Positions 19,596 through 48,372 of a stretch of 64,000 nt of DNA are shown here, piece by piece. The position numbers and the translations under genes were made by a program. Numbering within the stretch: position 1 is the stretch's first letter; each line of letters begins with the position of its first letter. The notes beneath the pieces were generated by a model that was not told the origin of the DNA, ran no database searches, and saw nothing but the letters and a program-made list of their open reading frames with translations. Source of the DNA: a virus (taxonomy: Duplodnaviria > Heunggongvirae > Uroviricota > Caudoviricetes); the IMG/VR virus record IMGVR_UViG_2925450510_000002, one strand, 5' to 3'.

Positions 19596-19733
19596 TGATT
19601 GAAATCAAAATAAAGATGGGTTTATCATTACCAAAATGGTAAATTTACAACCCATTTTCCTTGTGCCATAGTGATCGGGCATCGGCAAAATCCGGTGCCG
19701 GGATTGGCGTCCCGGATAACTAAACGGCGCACA

Positions 19734-19756
19734 ACACGCGCACTGCGTGTTTTTTT
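19734..19756 (+). terminator. rho-independent terminator
   Basis: ACACGC-GCACT-GCGTGT followed by TTTTTT. Confidence 0.5.
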
Positions 19757-19909
19757 GTGCACGCGCTCTGACGCACCTATCCAATGGTGGGCTGGGCGGG
19801 GGTCCGAAAGGACGCCGGTATCCGTTTAGGCCGGTACGCCAACTCCGTTCAGTTCACCACCAGTAATTGGCGTTGCGGTGGTGATAACTCTACTAAGCGG
19901 GGTATCACA

Positions 19910-20599
19910 ATGAACACCAAACCTTCCATTTTCAATTTCGAATCAGACTCAGCTATTCGCGCCATTATGATCGATGGCAATCCTTGGTTTTTTGCATCCG
20001 ATGTTTGCCGCGCGATTGGCATCGCAAACCATCGTGATGCAGTTCGCAAACTTGATGATGACGAGAAGGGCGTCGGCTCAACCGACACCCTTGGTGGTGA
20101 GCAAGAATCAGTTATCATCTCCGAGTCTGGCCTCTACACCCTTATCCTCCGCTGCCGCGATGCGGTGACGCCGGGCACCATCCCCTACCGCTTCCGCAAA
20201 TGGGTAACCAGCGAGGTGCTGCCGCAGATCCGCAAGACTGGCCGCTACGTTCGGGAAGAACTCTCCCAGGCTGATAAAGCCCGCATGCTGGCGCAGGAGA
20301 TGACCAGCAGCATGTTGCCGGCGATCATGGATGCATTGCAGGTCGAGCAGAAGCATTACACCTTCCCTCTTAACCGACGCTATCAGGATCACATCCATTC
20401 ACCTGATGGCCTGCGTGAACTGGCGAAAAGCTCAATGGTGATGAAGCTGCTCCGCGAACTCGATGCTGACGGGCATGATGTTTCCGGCGCCGCCGCAGAG
20501 GTCACGGCCATGCTCAGCTACATTGTTGGTATCGGTGCCGTACTGCGCGACATAGAGACGCATGCTCAGTACGTGATGGTTAAGGCCAAGGGTTACTGA
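19910..20599 (+). CDS. antirepressor (Bro-N / AntA-like N-domain plus C-terminal domain)
   Basis: SIFNFESDSAIRAIMIDGNPWFFASDVCRAIG is a Bro-N signature. Confidence 0.7.
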   Translation: MNTKPSIFNFESDSAIRAIMIDGNPWFFASDVCRAIGIANHRDAVRKLDDDEKGVGSTDTLGGEQESVIISESGLYTLILRCRDAVTPGTIPYRFRKWVTSEVLPQIRKTGRYVREELSQADKARMLAQEMTSSMLPAIMDALQVEQKHYTFPLNRRYQDHIHSPDGLRELAKSSMVMKLLRELDADGHDVSGAAAEVTAMLSYIVGIGAVLRDIETHAQYVMVKAKGY

Positions 20600-20759
20600 G
20601 GCTGCTGGCGCAGGGAAGCGCCTTAAAAAGCATGATGCGTAACCTATTCATATCTATTGATATCACGTTTTTATTGCTTTGCTCATCTTGCAACCAACAA
20701 TACCTGTGAGTATATTTAGCCCAAAGGTATTCAACCTTTTGTTGAGTGTAGGAGGCAGT

Positions 20760-20972
20760 ATGCGTATCAAAAAATCAGGCAGAAAAGCCATGATGCTGGA
20801 AGGTATCATGACAGACAATGTTGTGACCGCAGATGCCGCATCCTTCCTGAGCATAGCCAACAAGAGCAGGAACGAGATCGAGTCTGTAAAATTTGAACCA
20901 CCAAAAATTGGTGGTAAAGGTTTTGGTTACTTCAGAGTCAGAATGAAAACCAGACATTATGAGGCTCAGTAA
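20760..20972 (+). CDS. small basic hypothetical protein, about 70 aa
   Basis: GGAGG SD. Low-GC segment. Confidence 0.4.
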   Translation: MRIKKSGRKAMMLEGIMTDNVVTADAASFLSIANKSRNEIESVKFEPPKIGGKGFGYFRVRMKTRHYEAQ

Positions 20973-20976
20973 GTAA

Positions 20977-21375
20977 ATGGCCGACCATAACAATGGAGTG
21001 CAAAGGCATCAGGCTGAAGTATTAGAGCAACTTATCGAGAATCAAAGGCTTGATATTGAGGTCAGGCGAGCAGAAGTAGAAACAAAATCTAAGGAAATTG
21101 AGGCCAATGAAAGAATTGGCCTCAGATCTATTGAGGCCCAGGAAAAAGTCCAGGTATCTCTAGGGCGTAGAGAAACGACCAATATTCTCATCCGCGTTGG
21201 TGGGTTTCTTTTGGCGTTTCTTTTCGTTCTGATCTTCATTGGTTTTGCCATAAAAAATGATGCTAAAGATATAGTTATTGAGCTAATGAAGTATGTTGTC
21301 CCGCTTATCATTGGTGGACTTGGTGGTTTTTATATTGGTAAAGCCAAGGGAAAAGATGAGGCTAGTGGTGAGTAA
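20977..21375 (+). CDS. coiled-coil protein with C-terminal double TM anchor
   Basis: 132 aa. Starts 5 nt after the previous stop. Low GC. Confidence 0.5.
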   Translation: MADHNNGVQRHQAEVLEQLIENQRLDIEVRRAEVETKSKEIEANERIGLRSIEAQEKVQVSLGRRETTNILIRVGGFLLAFLFVLIFIGFAIKNDAKDIVIELMKYVVPLIIGGLGGFYIGKAKGKDEASGE

Positions 21376-21445
21376 CTAACTGTACTTGATTTTTATGGAT
21401 GAAATCTAAGCGCAGCGCTAAACTCATGAAGCCACGTTCAGTGGT

Positions 21446-21844
21446 CTACACATGGTAAGTGAAAATGAAAAAAGCATTCGCAGTGCTGTTTGTTCTGTTG
21501 TCTCTGGGTTCTTCTGCACAGGCTTTCGCGTACTGGATAACCCGATCGCGGATTTCAGGACGGACTTTGTTGGGACTGATGGTATTGAGCCAACCGGCCA
21601 ACTTGCGAAGAGCGAGGCAAATCATTTTGCGGGTTTTACCATCAGCGGCAACCATAGAGATTTCCTCTATAGTTGATGAGAAGCGCTGTTTCAGCTTGGT
21701 GTATTGACCCATCCAGTCCATACCCATCCCCTCAACGATAGGTTTCATCGGGGTATACGGCTCGCCGTTGTGGTTAACGACGTAGAGGCTTGCACCGTGG
21801 AAAGGTACATTGATTGTACGATCTGCAATTGCTAAACTTGTCAT
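21446..21844 (-). CDS. antirepressor, P22 Ant N-terminal-domain-like
   Basis: LAIADRTINVPFHGASLYVVNHNGEPYTPMKPIVEGMGMDW fits the P22_AR_N pattern. AGGAAA SD. Downstream of the arc-like gene. Confidence 0.55.
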   Translation of the reverse strand: MTSLAIADRTINVPFHGASLYVVNHNGEPYTPMKPIVEGMGMDWMGQYTKLKQRFSSTIEEISMVAADGKTRKMICLALRKLAGWLNTISPNKVRPEIRDRVIQYAKACAEEPRDNRTNSTANAFFIFTYHV

Positions 21845-21915
21845 GTCAATATTTCCTACGCTGGTTTGTTGATAATGAAGCCCCGAAGGTGCCAGCCAAC
21901 GGGGCTTCGCTGTTT

Positions 21916-22068
21916 TTACTGCGCATGCATTTGCCCTCTGAACTTCAGTGCCCATACAAGCGCCTGAACTAAAGCTGCATTTTCAGAAAGCCCCTCCTCC
22001 TCCGCAATGCGTTTGAACTCTTCTTTTACTTTCTGCGGATAACGCAGAGTTGTTTTTGCCTCTTTCAT
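21916..22068 (-). CDS. Arc-like ribbon-helix-helix repressor, 50 aa
   Basis: MKEAKTTLRYPQKVKEEFKRIAEEEGLSENAALVQALVWAL parallels P22 Arc (LRWPREVLDLVRKVAEENGRSVNSEIYQRVMES). Confidence 0.6.
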   Translation of the reverse strand: MKEAKTTLRYPQKVKEEFKRIAEEEGLSENAALVQALVWALKFRGQMHAQ

Positions 22069-22157
22069 TCCTACCCCTCCTCCTCCGCAATGCGTTTGAA
22101 CTCTTCTTTTACTTTCTGCGGATAACGCAGAGTTGTTTTTGCCTCTTTCATTCCTAC
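21992..22157. repeat. perfect 83-bp tandem duplication (2 copies) covering the arc-like 5' end and its upstream region
   Basis: The unit CCCTCCTCCTCCGCAATGCG...CATTCCTAC is repeated head to tail. Confidence 0.8.
22071..22151 (-). pseudogene. truncated duplicate of the arc-like gene (26 codons, stop created at the repeat junction)
   Basis: The second repeat copy carries the same RBS and ATG. The frame ends at a TAG formed by the junction. Confidence 0.5.
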
Positions 22158-22251
22158 CCCTCCATTGATGGCATTATGCCTTGAAAGCAGAATGCCATCA
22201 TTGAAATTAAATAGCAATATGCCATCATCGTTTTTTTCTAAGGTTGATGTG

Positions 22252-22617
22252 ATGACAGAAAAACAGGTTAAAGATTACGAAAAATTTGTCGTGCGATTCC
22301 CCGATGGGATGCGCGACGCCGTCGCTGAGCGAGCCAAAAGCAACGGGAGATCCATGAATTCAGAGATCGTGCAGATAATTGAGGATGCGCTTTCTGGTGC
22401 CCCGGCTGTCGCCATTGACAGTCACAAAGAACTGGTTGAGCGCTACCGTGCGCTGGCGAAATCACTACCTGATAATGGCAACAGTGAGGAGTGGCAAAAA
22501 GAGATCGACAGGCTTAGTATTGCTATCATTGATGCAATGACTCCACTTGTGTTGCTACGAACTGAGTTAGTGAAACTCTCTGATAAAGCTAAAAATCATG
22601 ATGAAACCCAAAAATAA
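22252..22617 (+). CDS. Mnt-like ribbon-helix-helix repressor
   Basis: SNGRSMNSEIVQIIEDAL matches P22 Mnt ANGRSMNSELLQIVQDAL. Divergent from arc/ant. Confidence 0.7.
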   Translation: MTEKQVKDYEKFVVRFPDGMRDAVAERAKSNGRSMNSEIVQIIEDALSGAPAVAIDSHKELVERYRALAKSLPDNGNSEEWQKEIDRLSIAIIDAMTPLVLLRTELVKLSDKAKNHDETQK

Positions 22618-23194
22618 ACTATTTATTATTTCTGCTGTGATTTTCTGCTCGGGATTGTTTGTTTATTCAGCGGTGGCGGCGCTCAAGCACTTCACTCGGG
22701 ATGAATCCATAGTTCTTTCTGGGAAAGAAGCTAACAATTTCTTTTCTAATTACATCATCCCTATCACGGGACCAGGAATCCAGATTACCAATCAATATGC
22801 TGGATACGATGTCACCTATGGTATTGATAATGATGATAGAATCGAACTGCACGTGTCGGTATTGCGTCTACGAACATACAAAGAGAATGCAGACCTCGGC
22901 GAATCTAATAAAAACTATGTAGAAGGAAGTAAAACCGTATTCAGCTTTGGCACTGATGTTTACACTGAGGACTTTATAAAATTCACATCAGAAGCTACTA
23001 AAAGATCGACAAAGGAAGGTTTAAAGAAACTGTATTGTAATCCTGATGGATTTTATCCTATGTCATCACAGGAAAGGATCTTCTACGAAGCGCGGAAAGA
23101 ACATAAAAAAATAATTATAGATTATTACAGTGACTCGGGGAAAACCCTTATGTTTGGCATTGGGATTTCTCCCGAGTCATGCAGCCAAAAATGA
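22598..23194 (+). CDS. AT-rich secreted or membrane-anchored hypothetical protein (moron)
   Basis: 198 aa with an N-terminal hydrophobic signal/anchor. GC is much lower than the surrounding DNA. Confidence 0.5.
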   Translation: MMKPKNKLFIISAVIFCSGLFVYSAVAALKHFTRDESIVLSGKEANNFFSNYIIPITGPGIQITNQYAGYDVTYGIDNDDRIELHVSVLRLRTYKENADLGESNKNYVEGSKTVFSFGTDVYTEDFIKFTSEATKRSTKEGLKKLYCNPDGFYPMSSQERIFYEARKEHKKIIIDYYSDSGKTLMFGIGISPESCSQK

Positions 23195-26083
23195 TTAACG
23201 CATACCAGGATCAAATTGGTTCAGTATCGGTGCAATCCAAAACAGGTTGTTACCAGGAATTACCGTACGCACGTTATGCAATACCCGATCACCAGCATCA
23301 CCATTCAGCACGCCAGCCGTCACATCAGTAACAGTATCAAGCAGCCCGAACGTTGGCCCCAGCGCAGAACCGATAAAGCCTCGGCTGGCGTAGCGGGATT
23401 GCGTACCGGTACCGAGCATCGGCCCTAAGCCAAACATCCCGCCAGTAGCCTTCTCCGCCATGTTGTTGTATTCCATCAGCGGGCCGAGAATACCAGAGCG
23501 ATCGATCCCCTCCAGCGCAAGTTTCTGCGGTGACCAGTCTACCTCTTTACCATTCGCGGCCTGCTTAAGTGCGTAGGTTAGCGCTCCAAGCGCAATTTGA
23601 AAGGCCGTGCCATAGTAAAACTGTGCGTTACCTTCTGATAATCCGCCAATTGTGGCGCGGTTATATGATGCAGTCGTGAACGAGCGGAACTGGAAAACCG
23701 TTCGCCCGATAGGGGAGCTGGCCCACAATGGCGTATCGCCTATCCCCGGCGTGATAATGATGTTGTTGGTATCCTTCAAAACTGCCGACTGGAATACACC
23801 TGAAGCATAATCATCATCCCATTTATCAAAATTGCCAATGTGCCAACCATCAAGCACCTCGCCATGCTTACGAAACTGTTCATTTATGCGCACAGCCGTG
23901 GCCGGACTGATGCCCAGTTTCGCAATCCTGGAGGCTGGAGCCGACCCGGACAGAATGCTGTCAGCGGTCACCATGCCATTAATCGCTTTGTTAATGTCGT
24001 TATACTGCCCCATCAGTGTGAGCTTTCCGAACACATCGGTGACACGGTCTAGCCCGGCTTCAGCCGCGTTTGTACGCGTGGAACTGTCAACCAGATCAGC
24101 CATCAGGCGCGAACGGGAGTTAAGCACCGTTTCAACCATAACCCCCATCTTTTTCATTTCGCTTTTGTTGGCGGCGAACGCCGGTGACCTGGATATCAGG
24201 GCACCATAACCCTTCATGGTTTTACTGAATCCATTGACCATCACGCCGCGGGCGAGATCGGGAATCGCGGAAACCGTCATTCCACCAAGTTTGGTAACGA
24301 AGTTTACGTTACGCATAGCCCGACCAGCGCGAACAAAAAATGATGATGGGTCATCAGGCATTCCATACGTACCGACTAAACGATCACGCATAGCAGTGAT
24401 ATCCCGAATATCATTCTCACGTGCTTTAGCTAATTTGGCCTGCTCCTGAGGACGCGCTCGCATCAGTTCGTCATATTCATCCTGTATAGCCTTAAGCTGG
24501 GACTCAAGGTTGCGGTTTCCGAAAACGCGGGTTAATTCGATATCCGGAGAAGCCTCCCGGATATGCCGCTGCAATACATAGTTAGCGTCACTCTCCAGAT
24601 AATCGCGCATCATATTATCAGGCAGATTTAAAGTACGCTGCCGTGAGCTTCCAGGAACTTTGACGGTAAAAACGTTCGCAAAATCCTGGGGGATTTTTGC
24701 ACCAACGATTTTATTTATTGTTGCGTCTGCGGCGATCTCCGCATCTTCTCGTGACATAGCGGAAGGCCCACGCGACCACCAGTTAACTAAAAGATCACGG
24801 AATTTATCGCGCTCCTCAACAATTTTCCCCACTCTGTATACTCGAGGGAAATAACTGGTCTGCCCCAATGCTTTTAGCTCCGCATCAGGCGGTAGTAAGC
24901 CAAGATCCTGTTGAGCAACTTTCACCCTGTCGACTACCTGACGCAATGCCCGCGCGGCATCCTGAACAGCGGCATTGCCATGAATGTCACCATTTCGCAT
25001 GGCGTCGCCGACTTCTTCACGGAATCGTGTGTAATTGAGATCGCCACCATCAGATTTATATTTGGCATACGCCTGCTTATTGGTGACCACTACTGCGGCC
25101 TCCTCCCTCCTCCAACCACGCACGCGGGTTTCAGCCGCAACAGGGGTCTCAAATCCGCGTTGGTTACCCCGCAGCGCAAAGTTATTTTCCGCCAGTTCCA
25201 GCGCCGTGATCCGAGCGTTACGCGATGGCGACGAAATGACCCGCGATATTGGCGTCATATACCCGCCAGCCTTTAACGCGATATCCGCCGCTTTTCCCCC
25301 ATCAAGTGTGAGATCGTCAAGCGTTGCCTGCCTGATCTGCATCGCACCGACACTACCACCATCGGGCAGGCTATCCATCCCACGATTAATAGCGTTAGTC
25401 ATGCCGACATTTTCCAGCGCATCAGCCATTTCCCGTGTGGCCGCTGTTCTTACCGACGGGGTGATCATCGCTCCAGCAGTCGCAAAAATACCGCTGAGCA
25501 TGGCTCCTGCGGTGATGTGTGCGGCACTTTCCCCCAGAGTCCTTGTGTACTGCTGGTTGTTAAGTGCGACTTCGCTCAACGCAGTACCGGCGGCACCGAT
25601 CGCAACCTGTGAACCGATACGCGCTGCAAGAGTACCCTGAGTGCCGGGGATGAACATCGAGGCAATGGTAACAGGGTCGATAAGACCGGCGGCAATACTC
25701 GCCAGAGTACCTTCGGCGCCCGCCTCCCCCAACACCCGACGATCTTCATTTTCGTTGTCAATTTGACTTTTAATCCATGCGGTTTCCTCTGGCGACTGAG
25801 AATCTGCGAAAGCAGATCCCCATTGCTCATAACCATGAATTTCATTCTTATCAGAATACGGGTTATAACCTTGTGCTGGTTCGAATTGTTTTGCCGGACG
25901 AAACATCCCAGCCAGCAAGTTATTCTGACGAAACGCAGCCCCCCATACAGACGGCTGCTGCTGCGGCGGCTCTGGATTGGTGCCGGCTGGTAGTGATACG
26001 TCAAAACCGGCTGGCTCCTGCAGGGCGCTACCTGCTGGCACGTATCCATTGCCGTATTCATCAGGAGTTGGATAGATAGGCAT
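23195..26083 (-). CDS. internal virion / ejection protein (T7 gp15/gp16 class), 962 aa
   Basis: Large Gly/Ala-rich protein in series with gp14-like and SLT-containing proteins, downstream of the tail tube genes. Confidence 0.55.
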   Translation of the reverse strand: MPIYPTPDEYGNGYVPAGSALQEPAGFDVSLPAGTNPEPPQQQPSVWGAAFRQNNLLAGMFRPAKQFEPAQGYNPYSDKNEIHGYEQWGSAFADSQSPEETAWIKSQIDNENEDRRVLGEAGAEGTLASIAAGLIDPVTIASMFIPGTQGTLAARIGSQVAIGAAGTALSEVALNNQQYTRTLGESAAHITAGAMLSGIFATAGAMITPSVRTAATREMADALENVGMTNAINRGMDSLPDGGSVGAMQIRQATLDDLTLDGGKAADIALKAGGYMTPISRVISSPSRNARITALELAENNFALRGNQRGFETPVAAETRVRGWRREEAAVVVTNKQAYAKYKSDGGDLNYTRFREEVGDAMRNGDIHGNAAVQDAARALRQVVDRVKVAQQDLGLLPPDAELKALGQTSYFPRVYRVGKIVEERDKFRDLLVNWWSRGPSAMSREDAEIAADATINKIVGAKIPQDFANVFTVKVPGSSRQRTLNLPDNMMRDYLESDANYVLQRHIREASPDIELTRVFGNRNLESQLKAIQDEYDELMRARPQEQAKLAKARENDIRDITAMRDRLVGTYGMPDDPSSFFVRAGRAMRNVNFVTKLGGMTVSAIPDLARGVMVNGFSKTMKGYGALISRSPAFAANKSEMKKMGVMVETVLNSRSRLMADLVDSSTRTNAAEAGLDRVTDVFGKLTLMGQYNDINKAINGMVTADSILSGSAPASRIAKLGISPATAVRINEQFRKHGEVLDGWHIGNFDKWDDDYASGVFQSAVLKDTNNIIITPGIGDTPLWASSPIGRTVFQFRSFTTASYNRATIGGLSEGNAQFYYGTAFQIALGALTYALKQAANGKEVDWSPQKLALEGIDRSGILGPLMEYNNMAEKATGGMFGLGPMLGTGTQSRYASRGFIGSALGPTFGLLDTVTDVTAGVLNGDAGDRVLHNVRTVIPGNNLFWIAPILNQFDPGMR

Positions 26084-28785: not shown

Positions 28786-28796
28786 CGTTTGTCTCC

Positions 28797-29357
28797 TTAC
28801 AGCGAACCGGTGAGATAGTTATTCCAGGCAGAACCGAATCCTCCGGTAGAGGTCGATTTCTTCATCAGCGAGCCGCTCAGGCTGGTACCGCCCAGCGTCT
28901 TGTATGCATTAAGACCGGTCAGCGTGGAGTTGAGCAGTGTTGAACCTGCGCCAAGCATTCCGGACTGCTTATCAATTTTCCCTTGCGCTCGGCTGGTATC
29001 AGCCTGGAACTGCAACCCGGCGGCCTGTCGCTGGCCGTTGTTGATGGTGGTCAGCGCGTCGAGCGTGCCCTGCTGCATGGTTTCAGTTGTCAGGTCCAAT
29101 GCGTTACCGCTCGTCAGGTCGGCGCCGTTAGCAGCCAGTGCATTGGTTTGCTGTCCGGCAACCCGCCGGGCCTGCTGCCGCTGCTGGTATGCCTGGTCAT
29201 TAGCTGTGTTGATAGTGTCGCGGGCGGCCTGCTCCTGAGCGTCGGCGTTAGCGTTCGCCAGCGCGGCGTTAGCGCGGCCTGTCTGAATCTGACTGTAAGC
29301 GCTGAGACCGCCGGAGACGGCGGAAACTGCCAGCGCTGCGGTACCGACATCACACAT
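28797..29357 (-). CDS. internal virion protein B-like (gp14-like)
   Basis: 186 aa, Ala/Gln-rich. Position matches T7 gp14. Confidence 0.45.
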   Translation of the reverse strand: MCDVGTAALAVSAVSGGLSAYSQIQTGRANAALANANADAQEQAARDTINTANDQAYQQRQQARRVAGQQTNALAANGADLTSGNALDLTTETMQQGTLDALTTINNGQRQAAGLQFQADTSRAQGKIDKQSGMLGAGSTLLNSTLTGLNAYKTLGGTSLSGSLMKKSTSTGGFGSAWNNYLTGSL

Positions 29358-37535: not shown

Positions 37536-37941
37536 ACGCGTTTAAATTATTACCAATTTAACCACATATGATTTATTTGTCGTAGTGTATTGACCTTTTG
37601 ACGATAAATTATTACCTTTTTGGTAAACACAACATGAAAGCGCACCCCATTCCCTTCCATTGGTGGCTTTGTCGTTACTCAGATGGCGGAGTGCGCTTCC
37701 AGGTGTGAAAGCATCCGGCGTATGGCACATGCGCCGATAGCGGTCCGGGGGCTCCTTGGTACATGGCCCAGCGGGTAGCCGGAATGTGCAAGCCATGCCC
37801 TGCATGCACGACAGCGACTCACCATCGTGGCGGTACGGTGTGACACCTCGGAAGAGACGAGGATGCAACGATGAGAGCATTGGCGGAAGCAACGCCTCCC
37901 TCGCCGGGTGGTCCACTGTGGTAATCAGTGCTCTCTTCGTT

Positions 37942-38018
37942 GTGGCATTAGCTCAGTCGGATAGAGCAACCGCCTTCTAAGCGGTTGGTCGCAGGTTCGA
38001 ATCCTGCATGCTGCACCA
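37942..38018 (+). tRNA. tRNA-Arg (anticodon UCU), CCA encoded
   Basis: Cloverleaf: D-arm GCTC-AGTCGGATA-GAGC, anticodon loop CTTCTAA, T-arm GCAGG-TTCGAAT-CCTGC. Acceptor stem has 2 G-U pairs. Confidence 0.7.
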
Positions 38019-38213: not shown

Positions 38214-38225
38214 AGAGAGGAAATC

Positions 38226-38747: not shown

Positions 38748-38767
38748 CACCGTAACATGTCGCAATC

Positions 38768-40266: not shown

Positions 40267-40856
40267 TGGTCACCACCCTGGCGCTCTTTCAGGCGGCGCC
40301 GGGCGGCGGCCATGCGGTCAGCAATGGTGACATTCACGTTAACTTCCATGCGCTCTTTGAATGCCATCACATCAACGTGCTTACCAATCAGCTCGAGGTT
40401 CTTCACCTTGTCTGGCCATTTTATTTTTTTGAGGATAGTCTCGATCGTGGTCTCATCCATGTTCATGATGGTTGAGGACAGATCGAAACCGCTGAGCGTG
40501 GTGCGCCAGATTTTCGGCCACTCGCGGATAGGCTTCAGGCCGCCGTCATCATTCAGGATATCCAGCACGTCCATCTGGTCTATTTCCACCAGGCGCAGCA
40601 GCACGTAATCGGCGCTGACGCGCAGGCGCTTGTTGCGCTCCTCCATCAGCTCAGCGATTCGTTTTTGGATACGCTCATCACGCATCATAGTGCTGGCTTT
40701 GACGTGGGCAGACTTTGGGGAGAACCCGGCATTGATGGCCGCCTGCGTCTGATTTTCAGGGCATTTCACATACTCCTGGGCGTAGGCTTCCTGCATCACC
40801 GTCAACGGTTTGTATTGAGTTGATTTGCGCTTCGGATCCTTTGGCATGGTAAACAC
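40263..40856 (-). CDS. terS: terminase small subunit (phage B)
   Basis: 197 aa with an N-terminal HTH-like region. Overlaps the terL start by 4 nt. Confidence 0.6.
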   Translation of the reverse strand: MFTMPKDPKRKSTQYKPLTVMQEAYAQEYVKCPENQTQAAINAGFSPKSAHVKASTMMRDERIQKRIAELMEERNKRLRVSADYVLLRLVEIDQMDVLDILNDDGGLKPIREWPKIWRTTLSGFDLSSTIMNMDETTIETILKKIKWPDKVKNLELIGKHVDVMAFKERMEVNVNVTIADRMAAARRRLKERQGGDQ

Positions 40857-40924
40857 CCCGAAAATAATTACCTTTTAGGTAATAGTAACACGCAAAACAA
40901 AGCCGCCATAGTCGGCGGCCGCGG

Positions 40925-41191
40925 TCATTCCAGTTTAAATTCATCCTCTAACTCATGAGATCGGGCGGCGACATGGTCGTATAGCACGACGTACTCAACG
41001 CAGCTTGATAGGGGCATTGGCCGCTCAAACTCAAGCCAGAAGCAGTCGGCATAAGCTCGACCAAACCAGTACCCGCCGCCGAACTCCTTACCACGCTGGA
41101 TCATCATCCATCGGCCATCAGGTACAGCGTCGATAAAATCCCCGCGGTAAACGACAGTATAATTACGGTCTTTGCCACCCATGATCTTCAC
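40925..41191 (-). CDS. small hypothetical protein behind an SOS box (candidate antirepressor or inducer)
   Basis: 88 aa with an AGGGGTGAAG SD. A LexA box lies 9 nt upstream. Confidence 0.5.
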   Translation of the reverse strand: MKIMGGKDRNYTVVYRGDFIDAVPDGRWMMIQRGKEFGGGYWFGRAYADCFWLEFERPMPLSSCVEYVVLYDHVAARSHELEDEFKLE

Positions 41192-41199
41192 CCCTAAAA

Positions 41200-41219
41200 T
41201 ACTGTATATTTAAACAGTA
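41200..41219. promoter_or_regulatory. LexA (SOS) box TACTGTATATTTAAACAGTA
   Basis: CTGT-N8-ACAG with 18/20 match to the consensus. Overlaps a candidate -10; a TTGACT -35 lies upstream on the minus strand. Confidence 0.6.
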
Positions 41220-41256
41220 TAATCATGCGAGGATTTAGTCAATCTGTCGTGACATG

Positions 41257-41595
41257 TCACAGCGGTAGTTTTGTTTCGTGCCAGCCGTACATAACCCAGC
41301 ATGCGGCTTCCCCTGAGTGCGGGCATGATGCCACTGGCAGTTGATCTCCGCACTTGCCGCAGCGCCGTTTGCTGATGGCGTTAATCCGGCCGCGCACCCG
41401 GGCATCATCCTGGCGGATCAGCAGCGCGATGTACTCGGCCATTTCGTATGGATCGCGACCAGGGCGCCGGGCGGCGCAGTTCCGCGCCAGCATCTCTACT
41501 TCCTGCTCGTCGAGCACCAGTTCAATTTTGCGCTCACCGGCGGCGGACTGCCGCGCGCGCTGCGCGGCTTTGCGTTCTGCTGGGGATTTAGGCAT
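41257..41595 (-). CDS. hypothetical protein with C-terminal Cys cluster
   Basis: 112 aa, CGKCGD...CPHSGEAAC. Confidence 0.45.
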   Translation of the reverse strand: MPKSPAERKAAQRARQSAAGERKIELVLDEQEVEMLARNCAARRPGRDPYEMAEYIALLIRQDDARVRGRINAISKRRCGKCGDQLPVASCPHSGEAACWVMYGWHETKLPL

Positions 41596-41834
41596 CAGTC
41601 GTCATCCTCATCCCAATCGTCACCTTCCTCATCCTCTTCATCATCGCAGGATGCGAGCAGAGGATTCATCCGCCGCCCTACCTGGCTGGCGTAGCCGCGG
41701 CGACAGAGGTTGTGCAGCACGCTGTAAATTTCGAACATTTCGGTCCGCTCATCACCAATATCAAGCTCACAGGCCAGCGTGTGGCATTCAGTAGCGAGTG
41801 CCGATATCTTCTCAAGCAGTTCGACCTTATTCAC
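41595..41834 (-). CDS. small protein with a poly-acidic C-terminal tail (DDEEDEEGDDWDEDDD)
   Basis: 79 aa. Start overlaps the stop of the upstream gene. Confidence 0.45.
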   Translation of the reverse strand: MNKVELLEKISALATECHTLACELDIGDERTEMFEIYSVLHNLCRRGYASQVGRRMNPLLASCDDEEDEEGDDWDEDDD

Positions 41835-42495
41835 CTTTCACCTCCTGAGGGGCGGCTGGCAGCGGCATCCAGTGGGTTACGTTTTGCAACTTCAATCTGT
41901 CGCATGGCTCATAGCCATCAATGGTAAATCCATCATCAGAACTATACATAGCCTCGCCATAAACCTGATCTCCATCGAAAGCGATAACTGCCTCAAAATC
42001 TATCGGCATCTGCTCGCTTACCGGAATCCATTTACCCGGCACGGTAGCGGGTTCACTGCCGGGTGACTGAGGGGCGGCTGCGAGCATGGCGGCGCGGCAG
42101 GCGTTCCAGGAATCAGCGGCCGCATTTCGCTGGTCTTCATCCCACTGGAATACAGCGCGGTCACGACGCCTGGCACTGGCAAGAATTTCGATACTGTCCG
42201 GAGTGGCTTCTTCCGGCACTACCGGCGCTGGCTGCGCGTGGCGATAGAGCGGCTCAACCTCTCCCGCCAGGTCACCTCTACTGGCGAGATGCCACCGTTT
42301 ATCTGGCCCACTGCGCCAACGCCACGCCACCGGCTCGCTGTCCATCGCGGCCAGCGCCAGTTCAGCAAGCTGCAGGTCAGCCAATATTTCTTCGCGTGCG
42401 CTTTCGAATGCTTTCTGTCGTGATGCCATTTTCAGCGCTTTGACGTTTTCACGAGCGCGTTCGTGAAGCTGCGCTCTGGTTAATTTGCTGGTCAT
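41827..42495 (-). CDS. DUF551-family protein
   Basis: C-terminal ...VTHWMPLPAAP motif. Confidence 0.5.
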   Translation of the reverse strand: MTSKLTRAQLHERARENVKALKMASRQKAFESAREEILADLQLAELALAAMDSEPVAWRWRSGPDKRWHLASRGDLAGEVEPLYRHAQPAPVVPEEATPDSIEILASARRRDRAVFQWDEDQRNAAADSWNACRAAMLAAAPQSPGSEPATVPGKWIPVSEQMPIDFEAVIAFDGDQVYGEAMYSSDDGFTIDGYEPCDRLKLQNVTHWMPLPAAPQEVKGE

Positions 42496-42704
42496 TGGTT
42501 GGCTCCCCGTGAAATTTTGTGGCCCGGCGCATAGCAGCGCTGGCGGTCTTTGCTGATGCGCCAGCCAGCTTTGCGCGCCTGCTGAGAAATATCGGTCATA
42601 TTCCGGCCAATAAAATCAGCCTGCCCCTGCGGATAGATTTTCCCTGACTGACAACCATCACAGTCGCAGTAGAGGTCCGCGCAAAATCCTTCAGTGATAG
42701 CCAT
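42492..42704 (-). CDS. Cys-rich small zinc-binding protein
   Basis: 70 aa with 8 Cys (CADLYCDCDGCQSGK...). Confidence 0.45.
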   Translation of the reverse strand: MAITEGFCADLYCDCDGCQSGKIYPQGQADFIGRNMTDISQQARKAGWRISKDRQRCYAPGHKISRGANQ

Positions 42705-42875
42705 CTACTCATCCTCCCCGGTAATTTCGTGGTAGCCGTAATTGCATTGATTCAGGAAAATATCCTTAGCTTCTGCCGCAATCTCTTCATCGGTTGCATC
42801 ATCTTCAACTTCGAATATTTCCTCGAAATTTCCGCCAACAATCCCGGTCTCAATGGTCACTTTGAATTTACGCAT
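42705..42875 (-). CDS. small acidic protein, 56 aa (below the ORF-track threshold)
   Basis: ATGA and TAG/ATG couplings to both neighbours. MRKFKVTIETGIVGGNFEEIFEVEDDATDEEIAAEAK... Confidence 0.35.
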   Translation of the reverse strand: MRKFKVTIETGIVGGNFEEIFEVEDDATDEEIAAEAKDIFLNQCNYGYHEITGEDE

Positions 42876-43633
42876 CACTCAGCCTCCACCTTGATGCCAG
42901 CGGCAGACGAGAGTAACTCAAGCGCCAATCGCACTTGATGCTCAACTTCATCAGCTAATGGTGATTTGTAAGTATTCCTATAGTCCGGCAACTTCACAGT
43001 GACGGTGCGGGGTTCCAGGCATTCAGCAGGCTTAGTGCTCCAGCCGTGCCACCACATGAAGGCGCAGTAAGCGGCAACGTCGCGCGGATCACCTTTGGCG
43101 ATATGCTGGTGAAAGTGCGTCTGGCATTGACTTGGCCACCCATCCTGTTTCCAGTCCGCGTCGTAGCCGTATTTTAATTGGGCCTTGTACAGCTTCTCTG
43201 CTAGGGCAGTGCAGAAGTCGGTCACCAACTTCTGCGTATCCGGGTGAAGCTCGGATGGAATTACCGGTGCAGGCTTCACGGTGCGGGACTCCAGCTCGGC
43301 GATGCGAAACATCACGCGCCGTGATTTTTCTCTCTCCCGCTCAAGCTCTGCGTCCAGCTCGGCGATGCGCTTCTCTGCCGCTTCCGCCCTGGCCTCCTGC
43401 TCATGCGCTTCGCTCCATCCGCGATTGCAGTGAGCCTCCGTGGCTTGCGACTTCTCCAGCGCCTCTACCAATGCGAGAATGTTTTCCGGCGTCATTAACT
43501 CTTTGAATGTTTGCCTGGCAATGGTCGCCTTCACATATCGAGCTATATGGGCAGTCTCCTTGACGTCAGTTGCCGCCGCTTTCAGGCTCTGCGCCAGTTT
43601 GGTGATATCAGTTGTCATGCGGCACGCTCCCAT
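42875..43633 (-). CDS. coiled-coil hypothetical protein (Ea22-like class)
   Basis: 252 aa with a central coiled coil. Confidence 0.45.
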   Translation of the reverse strand: MGACRMTTDITKLAQSLKAAATDVKETAHIARYVKATIARQTFKELMTPENILALVEALEKSQATEAHCNRGWSEAHEQEARAEAAEKRIAELDAELEREREKSRRVMFRIAELESRTVKPAPVIPSELHPDTQKLVTDFCTALAEKLYKAQLKYGYDADWKQDGWPSQCQTHFHQHIAKGDPRDVAAYCAFMWWHGWSTKPAECLEPRTVTVKLPDYRNTYKSPLADEVEHQVRLALELLSSAAGIKVEAE

Positions 43634-44040
43634 TTCACGCCATTTTTCACCAACTGGCGGCAGTGCTGAATAATTTCAGCTCGCCCAACTTTGTTACCCA
43701 GCCTCCATGGGGAATAAAACTTCTCTTTATCAACCTCTTCCCCGGTTGAGTTTTCGGCGTCATACGCATACCCAATGCCATCCCAATCAGTGGTTTCATC
43801 GATTAGCCGGTTGTGGAGAATGTCAAACGCCTCTTGGCTATCTGCCTCCCCCCAATAGTCAACGGTGACGACTTCCCACGTCTGGTACCACATGCAGTTT
43901 GAATAAATCATCCCTTCGCCGCGTGACCACACTTCCCGTCGGTATTGGCGTGGCATAAGAGCAATCAAAATCTTCATGGCGGCGGTGTTAATTTTTTTCT
44001 CAATGCGCGGTTTTTCGTTGGTATAGCGTCGCTTGTTCAT
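43615..44040 (-). CDS. hypothetical protein
   Basis: 141-aa ORF. Confidence 0.45.
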   Translation of the reverse strand: MNKRRYTNEKPRIEKKINTAAMKILIALMPRQYRREVWSRGEGMIYSNCMWYQTWEVVTVDYWGEADSQEAFDILHNRLIDETTDWDGIGYAYDAENSTGEEVDKEKFYSPWRLGNKVGRAEIIQHCRQLVKNGVKWERAA

Positions 44041-44228
44041 TTGGCCCCCTCGCGCAGCTGCTTGGCAATATAATCCGCAAGTTCGCCTTTTTTATTTAGG
44101 TTTTGCATCTCAATCAGGTCGGACATTGCAAGTCCATTGGTCGGCGAGATAACAACAAAGTTACCGTTAACTTCAAACTGGCGACCTTGCTTCTCCATGC
44201 GTTTCACAAAATCAGCGACCTTTGACAT
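44037..44228 (-). CDS. hypothetical protein
   Basis: 63-aa ORF, coupled to its neighbours. Confidence 0.4.
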   Translation of the reverse strand: MSKVADFVKRMEKQGRQFEVNGNFVVISPTNGLAMSDLIEMQNLNKKGELADYIAKQLREGAK

Positions 44229-44622
44229 TTAACACCTCCAAAACGAAAGACTTCGCCCACTCGGCCTCTAGATGACATTCCATTGACACAAGATGCGCGG
44301 CAAACTCCTCCACCCCATCAGCCTTAATCCCGGCTACGATGCGATCGGTGGCGGGGGTTTGTACTGCCGTGACATTAGACCGGTGGTCATTCCATCCGCG
44401 CGCATATATCGGATTTATGGACATGCCGTCCTTCACGCAGTACCGCTGGCCACCACCATTGATAACTTCAATCTCTTCCGCAACGGCTGCCTTCAGCGCC
44501 ATATTCTCCGCAGCAAGCTGCTGGTACGATTTCGCCAGCTTCAGGAACTTCTGCTCTCTGATCGACAGCTCGCCCGCAGACTCCAGCGACCGAATGAGCT
44601 CGTTTACTGTTTCGATGTTCAT
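44212..44622 (-). CDS. hypothetical protein (start at MNIETV)
   Basis: ATGA overlap with the upstream small membrane ORF. Confidence 0.45.
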   Translation of the reverse strand: MNIETVNELIRSLESAGELSIREQKFLKLAKSYQQLAAENMALKAAVAEEIEVINGGGQRYCVKDGMSINPIYARGWNDHRSNVTAVQTPATDRIVAGIKADGVEEFAAHLVSMECHLEAEWAKSFVLEVLNVKGR

Positions 44623-44755
44623 GCTGTCACCCACTCGATCGCCAGATAAGCCACATACAGGACGGCGACGATTGCCACCCAACCAATGATGTTTGCCACC
44701 ATCACGAACAGCAGCAGTGACCGCCGACTGTAATTCACGAAATCAAAATCCATAC
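44621..44755 (-). CDS. small single-TM membrane peptide, about 44 aa
   Basis: MDFDFVNYSRRSLLLFVMVANIIGWVAIVAVLYVAYLAIEWVT. Below the track threshold. Confidence 0.3.
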
Positions 44756-44814
44756 TTACCCCCGCTTACCCGTTTAACTTATTGATTCAATTGATATCAA
44801 TGAAGATCGTTGTT

Positions 44815-45162
44815 TTAGAACTCTTCGACCTTCCACCCGCCGCCGGCTTTTGCCGGGAGCTTCGTTACTCCGATGATCCGGAATGGGTACTGGTCGGCGG
44901 CGACTTTGGTTTTCACCCTGGCATCGTCGGTCCAGTAACCCCCCTTCACTTCGTGCATTTCCAGTTGGCCGTTTGCCAGCATCACGGCGAAGTCAGGCGT
45001 GTAGAACGTGTTGTCAGCCAGACGCAGCTTGATGCCTTCGAACCGGTACCAGGCTATCTCCCCGTAGCGCTTACGCAGTTCAAGCTCTTGCGCATACGCC
45101 GTTTCGGTTTTGTTCATCTGGCCCGCTTTAAGCCGGCCTAGTGCCTGTACTGTCTTTCGCAT
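44815..45162 (-). CDS. DUF1064-family protein (putative nuclease / resolvase-like)
   Basis: KTETAYAQELELRKRYGEIAWYRFEG...YTPDFAV...EVKGGYW fits the DUF1064 pattern. Confidence 0.5.
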   Translation of the reverse strand: MRKTVQALGRLKAGQMNKTETAYAQELELRKRYGEIAWYRFEGIKLRLADNTFYTPDFAVMLANGQLEMHEVKGGYWTDDARVKTKVAADQYPFRIIGVTKLPAKAGGGWKVEEF

Positions 45163-45281
45163 GATTTTTACCTTATTGGTAATTTATAACCATAAACGGA
45201 TCAATATCAATAGTCTTGCGCATATTTTATTACCCTTTTGGTAAACATTAAGGCGTAAAAAAACGCGCTTCCGCGCCGGTA

Positions 45282-46067
45282 TTACTTGATGAGTCCTGCT
45301 GCCTTCCCTCGCCGGTATTCCTCCATCAGCCACTGTGCCGGGGTTATACCTCCGAGTGTCGCCGCGTTAGGCATGCATCCGAAGCTTCGACCTGGTGGAT
45401 GGTAGGTATTGCCACCGGGGTCTGGAGGGGTGCTTATAGGCTCTGGCTTCGACTGGATGCTCAGAATCGGATCAGGTATCTGATGACCTGCCGCGACCTT
45501 TGATGCCCATTCGTCAAGAAGCTTACGCGCATGTTTCTCAACTTCAATCTCACTTAACTGACGCTGGTACATCGCGCGCCTGGTATCGCACACAATCCAG
45601 TACATGACAGGGTGGCGCCACGGGAATTGTTCTGGTCCGCCAGGCTGTAGGCTTTTCTCCTTGGCGTAGCGGTGAAACTCCCCCATCACATCTTCGATGC
45701 TCACGCCAAGCACCATCTTGCTGTCTTTGCACCACTTGATGAATTGACCTGGTGACGGCCAGAACGGTGATTCACAGGCACGGGCATGGCGCATTCCTGC
45801 TGATACCTGCTCGCGGGTACGGATACCACCTTCGGCGAAAGCGGCGATCCACTGGCGCTTAGCGTCGGTCTCCTGCTGTGCGGTCTTAAGGTTGGTCTGC
45901 TCTGCTGCCGGAAACAGTTGCTTGAGCTGTTTAAACAGGGCATCGACAAGTCTCTCTGCGCTGATGTTCACAACATTGTCTTGCTGAGCCTGGTGATTGT
46001 CCGGACCCATCATGCGAGCCAGGGCGCCGGCATCACGATTCTGAATTGCTGCGAATACGTTACTCAT
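45282..46067 (-). CDS. replication protein P-like (helicase loader)
   Basis: KRQWIAAFAEGGIRTREQVSAGMRHARACESPFWPSPGQFIKWCKD parallels lambda P (RRQWVLAFRENGITTMEQVNAGMRVARRQNRPFLPSPGQFVAWCRE). Confidence 0.65.
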   Translation of the reverse strand: MSNVFAAIQNRDAGALARMMGPDNHQAQQDNVVNISAERLVDALFKQLKQLFPAAEQTNLKTAQQETDAKRQWIAAFAEGGIRTREQVSAGMRHARACESPFWPSPGQFIKWCKDSKMVLGVSIEDVMGEFHRYAKEKSLQPGGPEQFPWRHPVMYWIVCDTRRAMYQRQLSEIEVEKHARKLLDEWASKVAAGHQIPDPILSIQSKPEPISTPPDPGGNTYHPPGRSFGCMPNAATLGGITPAQWLMEEYRRGKAAGLIK

Positions 46068-46831
46068 AAGAAATCCTTCCAGCCTTCAGGGCTGTTCCAG
46101 TGTGGTACTTCATCGTCAGAGCTTTCACCGCGCTTTCCTGCCGCTCTTTTTTTCCTGTTCATCAGCAGCCGGGCAAACTTCTGCTCCCACTGCACGTGTT
46201 GCATCACATTGCCTTCTGCCATCCAGTAGGTGATGAATTCGATCAGATCTGATTTCTTGTAACCGTCAGCTGGTAGCGCATGGCCCCATGTTCTGGCGCG
46301 CATGACAAAGTCCTCTGACGGCTTCCAGTTTTCATGCATGGTGAATTTGCCAATTGGCTCTCCGATACCATCAACGACAACCGGAGGGACTTGAATTACT
46401 TCGCGCGCAGAGAGAGGGGTTTTTATTTCCCTGATCCCTGATCCCTGATCCATTCCTAATGGTACTTGTACCGTATCAGTACCGTACTCATACGGTACTA
46501 GGGGTAAACCTTTGATTTTGCTTTCTTTTGGCTTATTCACTACCTGATGTTTAAGGAAATTAGTTATGACCCCAAAATGCTTGCCATCAGGGGTGGAAAA
46601 CATGGATAAATAACCACAGTTGGAAAGCTCCCGTATTAGTACCGGAATAGGAACGGATGGTTCTCGGATAGGGAAAACTGCAGCTTTGATAAGCTTCGGG
46701 TTTGCATTGAAATAGCCTTCATCATCTGCGTAATTAAGCAGACCAATAGCCAACAAGCAGGCTGGTTCTGATACCTCTGCCATGTCTTCATCGGTCCAGA
46801 ACTCGGGCTTAATGGTGCGAATGCGGGCCAT
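46064..46831 (-). CDS. replication initiator / replisome organiser (O position)
   Basis: 255 aa, MARIRTIKPEFW N-terminus. Coupled upstream of the P-like gene. Confidence 0.45.
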   Translation of the reverse strand: MARIRTIKPEFWTDEDMAEVSEPACLLAIGLLNYADDEGYFNANPKLIKAAVFPIREPSVPIPVLIRELSNCGYLSMFSTPDGKHFGVITNFLKHQVVNKPKESKIKGLPLVPYEYGTDTVQVPLGMDQGSGIREIKTPLSAREVIQVPPVVVDGIGEPIGKFTMHENWKPSEDFVMRARTWGHALPADGYKKSDLIEFITYWMAEGNVMQHVQWEQKFARLLMNRKKRAAGKRGESSDDEVPHWNSPEGWKDFL

Positions 46832-47085
46832 CAGATCACCTCCACGGCATTACCTTTTGAGGCCTCATGCATTAGCCGTTTTATCTCAGCATGGCGGCGG
46901 CGGTTAGTCTCGAGGGTGCATTCGACACAATGCCCGTTGTATACCCATCGCTCACTGTCATGGCCGTGCTTACATTGCTTACCGGTGTAGTAGCGCTTTA
47001 GTCCTGCCTTTGCCGCTTCGACGCGAGTAATGATCTCCATAGTTCCTGTCTCACTCTGGTTGTGGTTACGGTAATTTTGCAGCAA
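46831..47085 (-). CDS. small Cys/His-rich hypothetical protein
   Basis: 84 aa, CKHGHD...CVEC. Confidence 0.4.
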   Translation of the reverse strand: MLQNYRNHNQSETGTMEIITRVEAAKAGLKRYYTGKQCKHGHDSERWVYNGHCVECTLETNRRRHAEIKRLMHEASKGNAVEVI

Positions 47086-47186
47086 GCCAAAAAAAGATCA
47101 ACCGTATTTGGATAATTATTACCGAATTGGTGTACAGGGAGAGGCAGGAGCCGCCTGGGGGTGGCGGCGAGGGTGAGTTTTGAGGA

Positions 47187-47420
47187 TTAACGTTCGTGGA
47201 ACCAGAGGACCAGGTCGGATTTTGCGGAGATCCACTTACGGGATTTGCAGGCTTTAAACAGTCTTTCTAACAGAGGCTTACGTGGAATTCTTCTACGGCC
47301 AGTCAGGTGAACCTGAATGTAGTGGCTGGTCGTGCCGGCGTCACTTGCGAACTCTTCACGCTCTGCCGGAGAGAGGTCGAGCCAGCAGCGTTTGAAGTCA
47401 AATTTTTGCACATCGCTCAT
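47187..47420 (-). CDS. Cro/CII-like small HTH regulator (start uncertain)
   Basis: HTH-like SDAGTTSHYIQVHLTGRRRIP. Divergent from the plus-strand repressor. Confidence 0.45.
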   Translation of the reverse strand: MSDVQKFDFKRCWLDLSPAEREEFASDAGTTSHYIQVHLTGRRRIPRKPLLERLFKACKSRKWISAKSDLVLWFHER

Positions 47421-47458
47421 ATTTTTTAGTCCCGGACTAACTTTAGACAGCCTGATTA

Positions 47459-47520
47459 TTACCAATCTGGTGTAAAAATCAATGACTGTTACCTTTTTGG
47501 TAAGTTTACCTTTATGGTAA
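47459..47520. promoter_or_regulatory. operator cluster: TTACC-N5-GGTAA palindromes (47489..47503, 47506..47520) and an imperfect copy (47459..47473)
   Basis: Perfect 15-bp palindromes TTACCTTTTTGGTAA and TTACCTTTATGGTAA between the divergent regulators. Confidence 0.5.
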
Positions 47521-47573
47521 TATTCTATTAAATTTAATCAGTTAGGTAACAATTCCAGGCTAAAAAAATAGAA

Positions 47574-48155
47574 ATGAAAAGCATCTACGACATAAGACGC
47601 GACAACCTCAATGAGATAATCCGGAAGGATTTCGATAACACGCAACTCCGGTTTGCCGAGAGAATCAAAAAATCAGCTAACCTCGTTAACAGGTGGAGCA
47701 AGGGGACAAAAAATATCGGCGCTAACGCGGCACGCGAGATCGAGTCGTTCGCCGGAAAAGGTCGTTTCTGGCTGGATATCGACCATCTGTCAGATACCCC
47801 GACGCTGCCGGAGATTATCGACCCGCAGGAATGGAGTGTGGAAAAGCAGGCAGCGTTTACCCTGGGTGTATGGATGGGACAGCATCCGGATCTGAACTCA
47901 GAGAAAAAGGTTTCGGAAGCGGCCGGTATCGGCCAGGCGACCGTAAATCGCATCCTGAACTGCGAAGGCTCCACCAGCATTGGCGTACTGTCGGCTATCG
48001 CCAGGGCGTTCGGCCGCGATGCATATGAGCTGATCCTGCCGCCTGGTAATGCTGGTCTGATTGACTATGACCACCATGAATACGCCGGGCTGCCGCAGGA
48101 AGAGAAAAACAAGATCACCGCCTTCATCAAGTTCATCGTCAGCCAGAACCAGTAA
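47574..48155 (+). CDS. phage B repressor candidate with two HTH domains and no peptidase domain
   Basis: N-terminal and C-terminal XRE-like HTH segments. No Ser-Lys peptidase motif. Confidence 0.55.
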   Translation: MKSIYDIRRDNLNEIIRKDFDNTQLRFAERIKKSANLVNRWSKGTKNIGANAAREIESFAGKGRFWLDIDHLSDTPTLPEIIDPQEWSVEKQAAFTLGVWMGQHPDLNSEKKVSEAAGIGQATVNRILNCEGSTSIGVLSAIARAFGRDAYELILPPGNAGLIDYDHHEYAGLPQEEKNKITAFIKFIVSQNQ

Positions 48156-48219
48156 GCCTCTAATCTACCTGTCAATGCTGCAATCCTGCCGGGGGGATAA
48201 CTTCCCGCGCCTCATACAT

Positions 48220-48372
48220 TTACCATTTTGGTAAACTTTTCCTCGTCACATCTATTGACTAATTCGAAAATTGATCAGATTATTACCTTAACGGTAACAG
48301 CAGGGCGTTGAATTACCAGAAACCCACCACCGGGTGGCTTTCTCATACCCCCTGACATTTACCAAATGGTAA
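48220..48372. promoter_or_regulatory. second operator cluster: TTACCATTTTGGTAA (48220), TTACCTTAACGGTAA (48283), TTACCAAATGGTAA (48359)
   Basis: Three palindromes upstream of the plus-strand recombination operon. Confidence 0.45.

Follow-up and report, generated by a model that had tools for sequence, protein, structure and literature searches.

A dispersed intergenic palindrome as the probable operator of the repressor Rep in an epsilon15-like Klebsiella prophage

A palindrome recurs between the genes of phage B

The 64,000-nucleotide stretch analysed here (IMG/VR virus record IMGVR_UViG_2925450510_000002; hereafter the window) contains two phages, phage A (1-17133) and phage B (18282-55200), with flanking host DNA. 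We examined the 15-bp palindrome TTACC-N5-GGTAA that recurs in phage B, together with the repressor Rep that very probably reads it. Phage B is a Klebsiella epsilon15-like (Uetakevirus) podophage prophage, and its early region shares 99% identity with the guaA-adjacent Klebsiella prophage ST512-KPC3phi13.3. The genes on which the argument turns are the following:

47574..48155, plus strand: rep, encoding Rep, 193 amino acids
47187..47420, minus strand, divergent from rep: cro-like small regulator, 77 amino acids, with 54-66% identity to epsilon15 gp39 and the homologs of gp39, and matching phrog_35 'transcriptional repressor' (E 9e-9)
19335..19595, plus strand: ant, small antirepressor, phrog_450; BLASTP against SPC32H Ant gives 65% identity, E 8e-42
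53866..55116, minus strand: int

The palindromic sites of phage B are given below, where PR and PL are predicted promoters either side of rep, and OR and OL the clusters of sites that overlap them:

19247..19261: perfect; between a tailspike fragment (18282..19148, minus strand) and ant
19628..19642: perfect; ends 1 bp before the -35 hexamer of the predicted promoter of isrK, C4 and the second antirepressor gene ant2
37612..37626: perfect; 91 bp upstream of gp3, the first gene of the portal-head-tail operon
40868..40882: perfect; between the terminator 40920-40901 and terS (ATG 40847)
45168..45182: perfect; proximal site of the DUF1064 promoter, overlapping its -10/+1 region and the DUF1064 ribosome-binding site; ATG 5 nt away
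45230..45244: perfect; distal site of the DUF1064 promoter, directly past the intrinsic terminator 45277-45262
47119..47133: imperfect, TTACCGAATTGGTGT; past the cro-like gene and a hairpin, ahead of the gp40-like/DnaT/P replication genes
47459..47473: OR3, imperfect, TTACCAATCTGGTGT; within the PR spacer
47489..47503: OR2, perfect, TTACCTTTTTGGTAA; 6 bp upstream of the PR -35 hexamer
47506..47520: OR1, perfect, TTACCTTTATGGTAA; on the rep-proximal side
48220..48234: OL distal site, perfect; 20 bp upstream of the PL -35 hexamer
48283..48297: OL proximal site, perfect; starts at the last base of the PL -10 hexamer and covers the transcription start
48359..48372: third OL site, N4 spacer, TTACCAAATGGTAA; immediately upstream of the first open reading frame (ORF) of the leftward operon
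55158..55172: core-only site, ATACCGTAATGGTAA; 41 bp upstream of int

An exact scan for TTACC-N5-GGTAA over the window found 10 perfect copies, against 0.00 expected from 100 dinucleotide-preserving shuffles. Nine of them had been listed in the initial annotation of this DNA, which overlooked the copy at 19247; the scan also bore out its copy with N4 spacing, 48359, which is genuine, and its two imperfect copies, 47119 and 47459, which share the same variant arm (TTACC-N5-GGTGT). Relaxing the motif to the core TACC-N5-GGTA gained the site at 55158 in phage B and one in host DNA at 59748, which has a G+C-rich spacer and is probably a chance match. No perfect core site was found in phage A by the core scan. 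With a gene map made from the ORF list and an annotated phage of 99% identity, all phage-B sites (14/14) fell outside genes, so that the earlier description of the motif as intergenic and, relative to phage A, confined to phage B holds. This placement is highly improbable by chance (~1e-12 that all 11 perfect-core sites land in intergenic DNA), because intergenic DNA makes up only 8.1% of phage B. The worry that the motif might merely reflect A+T content is inapplicable, since the window is ~53% G+C. The suggestion that essentially every transcription unit is gated was too broad: a site is present in 9 of the 17 gaps of at least 30 bp between phage-B genes. More than half of the sites (8/14) lie outside OL and OR, and the spacers between the arms are 95% A+T, as against 47% for the whole phage. 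The shuffle counts and the intergenic bias rule out an origin of the motif by chance or composition. Repeats serving methylation, packaging or replication origins were likewise ruled out, by distribution: the sites are single or paired before operons, never coding, and form no iteron-like clusters.

Rep is a full-length ortholog of the SPC32H repressor

A phmmer search of Rep against PDB matched the 'Repressor' of SPC32H (5d50_A, E 8.8e-77), with Rep residues 1-192 aligned to residues 2-196 of the structure, a full-length match. Rep is 64-65% identical to the repressors of epsilon15 (gp38) and SPC32H and 45% identical to those of phiV10, Tyrion and TL-2011b, all five phages belonging to the genus Uetakevirus. 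Pfam placed HTH_3 at residues 109-152 and a weak YdaS-like helix-turn-helix (HTH) at the N-terminus (25-59), matched HTH_26 as well, and found no S24 peptidase domain in Rep. In PMC9986798, SPC32H Rep is divided into an N-terminal DNA-binding, a middle dimerisation and a C-terminal tetramerisation/Ant-binding domain. On that layout the HTH_3 match of Rep corresponds to the middle dimerisation domain, and by homology it is only the N-terminal HTH that would bind DNA. The phenylalanines of the tetramer interface named in the same source (SPC32H F187 and F190) are kept in Rep as F184 and F187. SPC32H Rep binds palindromic DNA as a tetramer, which tetrameric Ant dismantles, as set out in PMC9638917 and PMC9986798. 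Furthermore, overexpression of the repressor of the relative ZX5 lowers holin and endolysin transcripts by >99.9% (PMC9782041).

The sites are conserved, and partly annotated, in related phages

The epsilon15 record AY150271.2 carries, as annotation, seven protein_bind features labelled 'repressor / lysogeny', and TACC-N5-GGTA is contained in 7/7 of them:

12-27: just before terS; corresponds to 40868 here
2931-2947: before gp3/portal; corresponds to 37612 here and overlaps an annotated IHF site
19895-19911: between gp19, the positional counterpart of SPC32H ant, and the tailspike gene; corresponds to 19247 here
32479, 32554 and 32616: three OL sites
35906: before the RuvC-like gene

Core sites number 13 in epsilon15 (0.2 expected), 11 in SPC32H (0.27 expected), 12 in Tyrion (0.2 expected) and 10 in phiV10, and their positions match those of phage B. 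In spacer-by-spacer alignments the palindrome stands out as a conserved block within otherwise diverged spacers, at terS (after a conserved terminator), gp3, OR, OL, between ant and the tailspike gene, after cro and after ant; the post-ant site, 19628 here, is also present in phiV10 and Tyrion. In the DUF1064/RuvC spacer a pair of palindromes is conserved exactly 62 bp apart, and this spacing of 45168 and 45230 is identical in 5/5 genomes and ~75 IMG/VR loci despite varying position. At the OR3 position one arm is degenerate in 5/5 genomes. For 47119, phiV10 and Tyrion have a perfect counterpart, epsilon15 and SPC32H an imperfect one. The third OL site has an N5 spacer in epsilon15 and SPC32H and N4 here, so it is probably weakened; the Klebsiella-type IMG/VR loci showed no third N5 site at the OL position of 48359.

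We surveyed 80 IMG/VR loci encoding the Rep N-terminal domain, among at least 379 contigs with such a domain. The OR pair, 17 bp apart, was present in all surveyed loci that include the region upstream of rep, the OL pair, 62-63 bp apart, in all 80, and a further 62-bp pair in nearly all 80, its distance to rep varying with the intervening replication genes. When viral contigs were searched with the N-terminal-domain alignment for domain-swapped relatives, only close Uetakevirus-like loci appeared among the 80 kept, and the set is therefore a survey of conservation, not a second independent case.

The half-sites accompany the Rep N-terminal domain into an unrelated phage

Pseudomonas phage PseuP_224 is an HK97-like siphovirus with a Q-like gene. 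Its cI shares with Rep only the first ~70 residues, the N-terminal domain, at 45% identity, and carries a GNSMEP motif that, by eye, we take to be typical of an S24 LexA-like peptidase domain; its Cro is unrelated to the cro-like protein of phage B. TACC-N4-GGTA occurs in PseuP_224 at three sites just upstream of cI (one imperfect) and two just downstream, and no perfect copy was found elsewhere in the 31.7 kb examined. Because PseuP_224 shares just this domain and the half-sites, the half-sites travel with the Rep N-terminal domain. Their confinement there to OR and OL positions indicates that it is in the epsilon15-like lineage that they have spread to late, replication and antirepressor units.

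Rep is the most probable reader of the palindrome

Taken with the orthology of Rep and the epsilon15 labels, these data make it very probable that the palindromes are operators of Rep and that Rep silences the units of this epsilon15-like prophage directly. That the cro-like protein is instead the main reader, or in a weaker form shares the OR/OL subset with Rep in the manner of lambda Cro, we regard as improbable. In its favour, the protein is small and conserved, is encoded divergently from rep and matches a 'transcriptional repressor' family, its gene is flanked by both imperfect GGTGT-arm sites, and in lambdoid switches the sharing of operators by repressor and Cro is the rule. But PseuP_224 has the same half-sites around cI with only the N-terminal domain of Rep and a Cro unrelated to the cro-like protein, a Cro bound before terS and portal in the lytic cycle would hamper late expression, and the epsilon15 record assigns its sites to the repressor, not to Cro. 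Thus the cro-like protein may share some sites with Rep, and a role as main reader is unlikely.

It is very unlikely that another factor binds the palindrome, be it of host origin or an activator encoded by the phage (the phrog_536 regulator, 41257..41595, or the PerC-like protein, 51644..52174, for example), and that the sites mark activator-dependent middle or late promoters. Several distal sites do lack a recognisable -35 hexamer, phage B does encode these additional regulators, and in epsilon15 annotated IHF sites overlap two repressor sites. However, the same motif builds classical three-site clusters that overlap PR and PL either side of rep, and in a phage of another family it accompanies the Rep N-terminal domain and is confined to the surroundings of cI; phage A lacks it, the flanking host DNA has hardly any, and it presumably matches neither the IHF nor the LexA consensus. 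A reading of the palindrome as a LexA box was rejected, since it does not fit CTGT-N8-ACAG and the real LexA boxes are located elsewhere. That the repeats are RNA hairpins (terminators, processing sites or translational operators) and not DNA operators is hardly credible: the right arm of 45168 doubles as the DUF1064 ribosome-binding site, and hairpin folding was somewhat better than in shuffled sequence at 2/4 sites, but the stems are just 5 bp (-3.5 to -5 kcal/mol) with no T-tract after them, and for this reason the hairpin or terminator reading was rejected. Moreover, genuine G+C-rich terminators adjoin several sites, the arms are fixed in both orientations while the spacer sequence varies freely, and several sites lie upstream of predicted transcription starts.

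Rep, then, is our preferred reader, and the proposal in the initial annotation that one regulator, encoded at 47574..48155, gates many units, late ones included, gains from the orthology of Rep and from the epsilon15 'repressor' labels. By homology the regulator would be a tetramer and not the 'dimeric' protein envisaged, and of its '2xHTH' only the N-terminal motif would contact DNA, the second, HTH_3, corresponding to the middle dimerisation domain. The alternative readers it named, the cro-like protein or a host factor, are made less likely by PseuP_224, with its shared N-terminal domain and unrelated Cro. Its remark that operators before late genes are atypical is right for lambda, but such sites were already annotated in the genus of epsilon15.

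Some observations limit the assignment to Rep. The terS, portal, post-cro and ant/tailspike sites showed no detectable consensus sigma-70 promoter when read by eye. The putative recognition helix of Rep, NLVNRW, is invariant in 5 genomes, as is the core of the motif, an agreement that fits Rep as the reader; with both fixed across the genus (epsilon15, SPC32H, phiV10 and Tyrion compared), even at 45% repressor identity, a comparison of their co-variation is uninformative. The core-only site 55158 is conserved in all relatives, yet the region around it is 90% identical throughout, and the epsilon15 record marks an integrase site adjoining its counterpart without a repressor site there. This site may serve Rep at the int promoter, or may instead belong to the Int arm-site region.

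Upstream of int, the stretch 55117-55260 is 90% identical across five genera-spanning relatives, and ACGGTA/TACCGT units are repeated around the palindrome at 55158. These units are probably Int arm-type sites; in the epsilon15 counterpart of this region, integrase and IHF sites are annotated.

The probable operators lie at predicted promoters and past terminators

The promoters predicted near the sites are the following:

PR, minus strand: TTGATT 47482-47477, 16-bp spacer, AATAAT 47460-47455; drives the cro-like gene
PL, plus strand: TTGACT 48255-48260, 17-bp spacer, GATTAT 48278-48283
DUF1064-operon promoter, minus strand: TTGATA 45210-45205, 18-bp spacer, TAAATT 45186-45181
isrK/C4/ant2 promoter: TTTACA 19644-19649, 17-bp spacer, CATAGT 19667-19672; its predicted start is the 5' end of isrK

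An operator lies inside the PR spacer, with OR2 and OR1 just upstream of PR on the rep side; others lie over the -10/+1 region at PL and at the DUF1064 promoter, and one abuts the -35 hexamer of the isrK/C4/ant2 promoter. The pairs at PL (centre-to-centre spacing 63 bp) and at the DUF1064 promoter (62 bp) are ~6 helical turns apart. The remaining single operators sit just past terminators and ahead of terS, the portal-head-tail operon, the replication genes and the ant/tailspike region. In the portal spacer a conserved GGTAAT half-site lies exactly 62 bp downstream of the full operator.

A second conserved element, CATATnnGGTT, lies before portal at 37545-37565 (minus strand). All five genomes have it 3' of the operators that precede portal, tailspike, the replication genes and DUF1064, with GGTAATA after it in two cases, and it may act as a promoter or activator element.

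The ant gene and an immI-like block adjoin probable operators

The ant gene lies between the tail genes and the tailspike gene, divergent from the tailspike fragment. Upstream of it is a LexA-box remnant (19297..19316; bottom strand CTGTATATATATACAT), of which one arm reads ACAT, not ACAG, a 1-bp difference; epsilon15, SPC32H, phiV10 and Tyrion have the perfect form CTGT-N8-ACAG, and in the relatives the box controls the ant promoter. Judging from this degenerate box, SOS control of ant may be weakened in phage B. Kim and Ryu reportedly found in 2013 that a single base change in the ant LexA box led to constitutive Ant expression in SPC32N.

A perfect LexA box, CTGTATATTTAAACAG, is present at 41202-41217, in the 65-bp gap upstream of an 88-amino-acid ORF (40925..41191, minus strand). 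This ORF, the last gene before the terminator and terS, belongs to phrog_2100 (unknown function) and may be another small gene under SOS control.

Between ant and the tail genes lies an immI-like block (19679-23194), which in its arrangement is reminiscent of immI in P1 and P22 and contains:

19679-19755, plus strand: isrK-like small RNA (Rfam, 80.2 bits)
19780-19864, plus strand: C4 antisense RNA (Rfam, 66.4 bits)
19784..20599: second antirepressor (ant2), 271 amino acids; phrog_130 'anti-repressor Ant', E 4e-64; its C-terminus resembles the small Ant
21446..21955, minus strand: Ant N-terminal-domain protein
22165..22617: Arc-like protein

A model for silencing and induction of the prophage

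We propose that paired N-terminal HTH domains of Rep would read the half-sites TTACC and GGTAA across the A/T-rich 5-bp spacer. Rep would act as a tetramer, by homology with SPC32H Rep, and would therefore have two DNA-binding heads. It would directly block PR, PL and the DUF1064 and isrK/C4/ant2 promoters, and at the 62-63 bp pairs one tetramer could bridge both operators, looping out the -35 region between them. At the single sites, Rep in the lysogen may silence each unit by occluding a weak promoter or by forming a roadblock after a terminator. Silencing would thus proceed unit by unit, instead of only blocking the top of a cascade. Induction would go via Ant, because Rep cannot cleave itself; by homology, Ant (19335..19595) would disassemble Rep.

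A more far-reaching version is possible, and we hold it only tentatively, as rather doubtful. Here Rep tetramers would loop each lytic promoter via the 62-63 bp pairs (PL, DUF1064 and the portal half-site), and Rep and the antirepressors would form a double-negative toggle that releases all units at once, a 'flat' design without a lambda-like cascade. The toggle is suggested by the operators that flank ant and sit at the isrK/C4/ant2 promoter. In PMC9986798 the repression mechanism of Rep is described as not well characterised, which leaves a modest opening for this looping and toggle reading.

Comparison with known repressor systems

The system of phage B is a member of the Rep-Ant type of epsilon15 and SPC32H (SPC32H Rep, PDB 5D50 and 5D4Z), with which it shares a repressor orthologous along the full length, an orthologous Ant and the same TACC-N5-GGTA core at OR, OL, terS, gp3/portal, between ant and tailspike and in the 62-bp DUF1064/RuvC pair. 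All sequence-testable features of that system were found, except a fully intact LexA box. Furthermore, guaA, the reported integration site of ZX5, is the locus adjoining phage B. Phage B differs from epsilon15 and SPC32H in its Klebsiella host, in a Rep that is just 64-65% identical, in the N4 spacer of the third OL site, in the degenerate ant LexA box, in the extra immI-like block after ant (isrK, C4, the 271-amino-acid Ant, the Ant N-terminal-domain protein and the Arc-like protein) with its own operator at 19628, and in its apparent truncation by IS5 within the tailspike gene.

Like P1 C1, Rep would be one repressor acting on many separate operons, with an operator before a C4-RNA/antirepressor operon (19628 here). 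In P1, Op51 precedes the c4-icd-ant immI operon and the C1 operators are dispersed over the genome; these are asymmetric 17-mers, and C1 is unrelated to Rep in sequence, whereas the operator here is palindromic and the repressor an XRE-type HTH protein (Pfam HTH_3). The stoperators of gp71, the repressor of mycobacteriophages L5/L1, are likewise many repressor sites outside the immunity region, located in lytic operons or between them, and probably silence the prophage by local blocks to transcription. L5 has ~30 sites, asymmetric, orientation-dependent and many of them inside operons, in contrast to the 14 palindromic sites here, which are all intergenic and of which several overlap promoters. 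For both P1 and L5, operators ahead of late genes are known in principle. PMC1934351 describes L5-type repressors as binding multiple asymmetric operators. Neither an asymmetric operator nor a repressor of the C1 or gp71 family was found in phage B, and only the genome-wide spread of sites is similar.

With lambda CI and Cro, phage B shares divergent repressor and cro genes and three operators per side overlapping PR and PL. It differs in a Rep without an S24 domain, in probable induction by an antirepressor, and in operators that also precede late, replication and antirepressor units; the lambda-type combination of an S24 domain with operators confined to OL and OR is not present.

Phage context

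Only the N-terminal 288 amino acids of the phage B tailspike are left (18282..19148, minus strand). An IS5-family element (~17127-18328; transposase 17282..18181) adjoins the remnant, and beyond it lie the S24-type repressor of phage A (16077..16745) and the remainder of phage A. No lysis genes, serotype-conversion genes or left attachment site of phage B were seen, and phage B is therefore probably defective. Phage A is 100% identical to Klebsiella phages ST11-VIM1phi8.3, ST11-OXA48phi15.1 and others, and its annotation includes a Q antiterminator, a P4-type primase and a DEAD-box helicase.

Between the portal-operon operator and a DUF2829 gene lies a tRNA-Arg (anticodon TCT; 37942-38018); a tRNA-Arg in the same terL-to-portal region is annotated in SPC32H, ST512-KPC3phi13.3 and several E. 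coli relatives. The first ORF past OL (48380-49471) encodes a fusion-like protein of 363 amino acids, of which residues 3-34 match phrog_898, the family of the 50-amino-acid epsilon15 gp37, and the rest phrog_1376. Similarity to ST512-KPC3phi13.3 stops at ~48551, indicating a mosaic junction in the left operon.

Significance

The system is already known in kind, the repressor family, its structure, the antirepressor and the dispersed sites being on record for epsilon15 and SPC32H, and operators before terminase and head genes are not new, because they are annotated in epsilon15; near-identical Klebsiella prophages are also already in GenBank. The motif is a reliable annotation signature of Uetakevirus-type prophages and marks the boundaries of their transcription units. 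Moreover, the constant 62-63 bp spacing of the pairs, together with the operators that surround the antirepressor genes, yields concrete predictions for how a Rep tetramer may silence a whole prophage.

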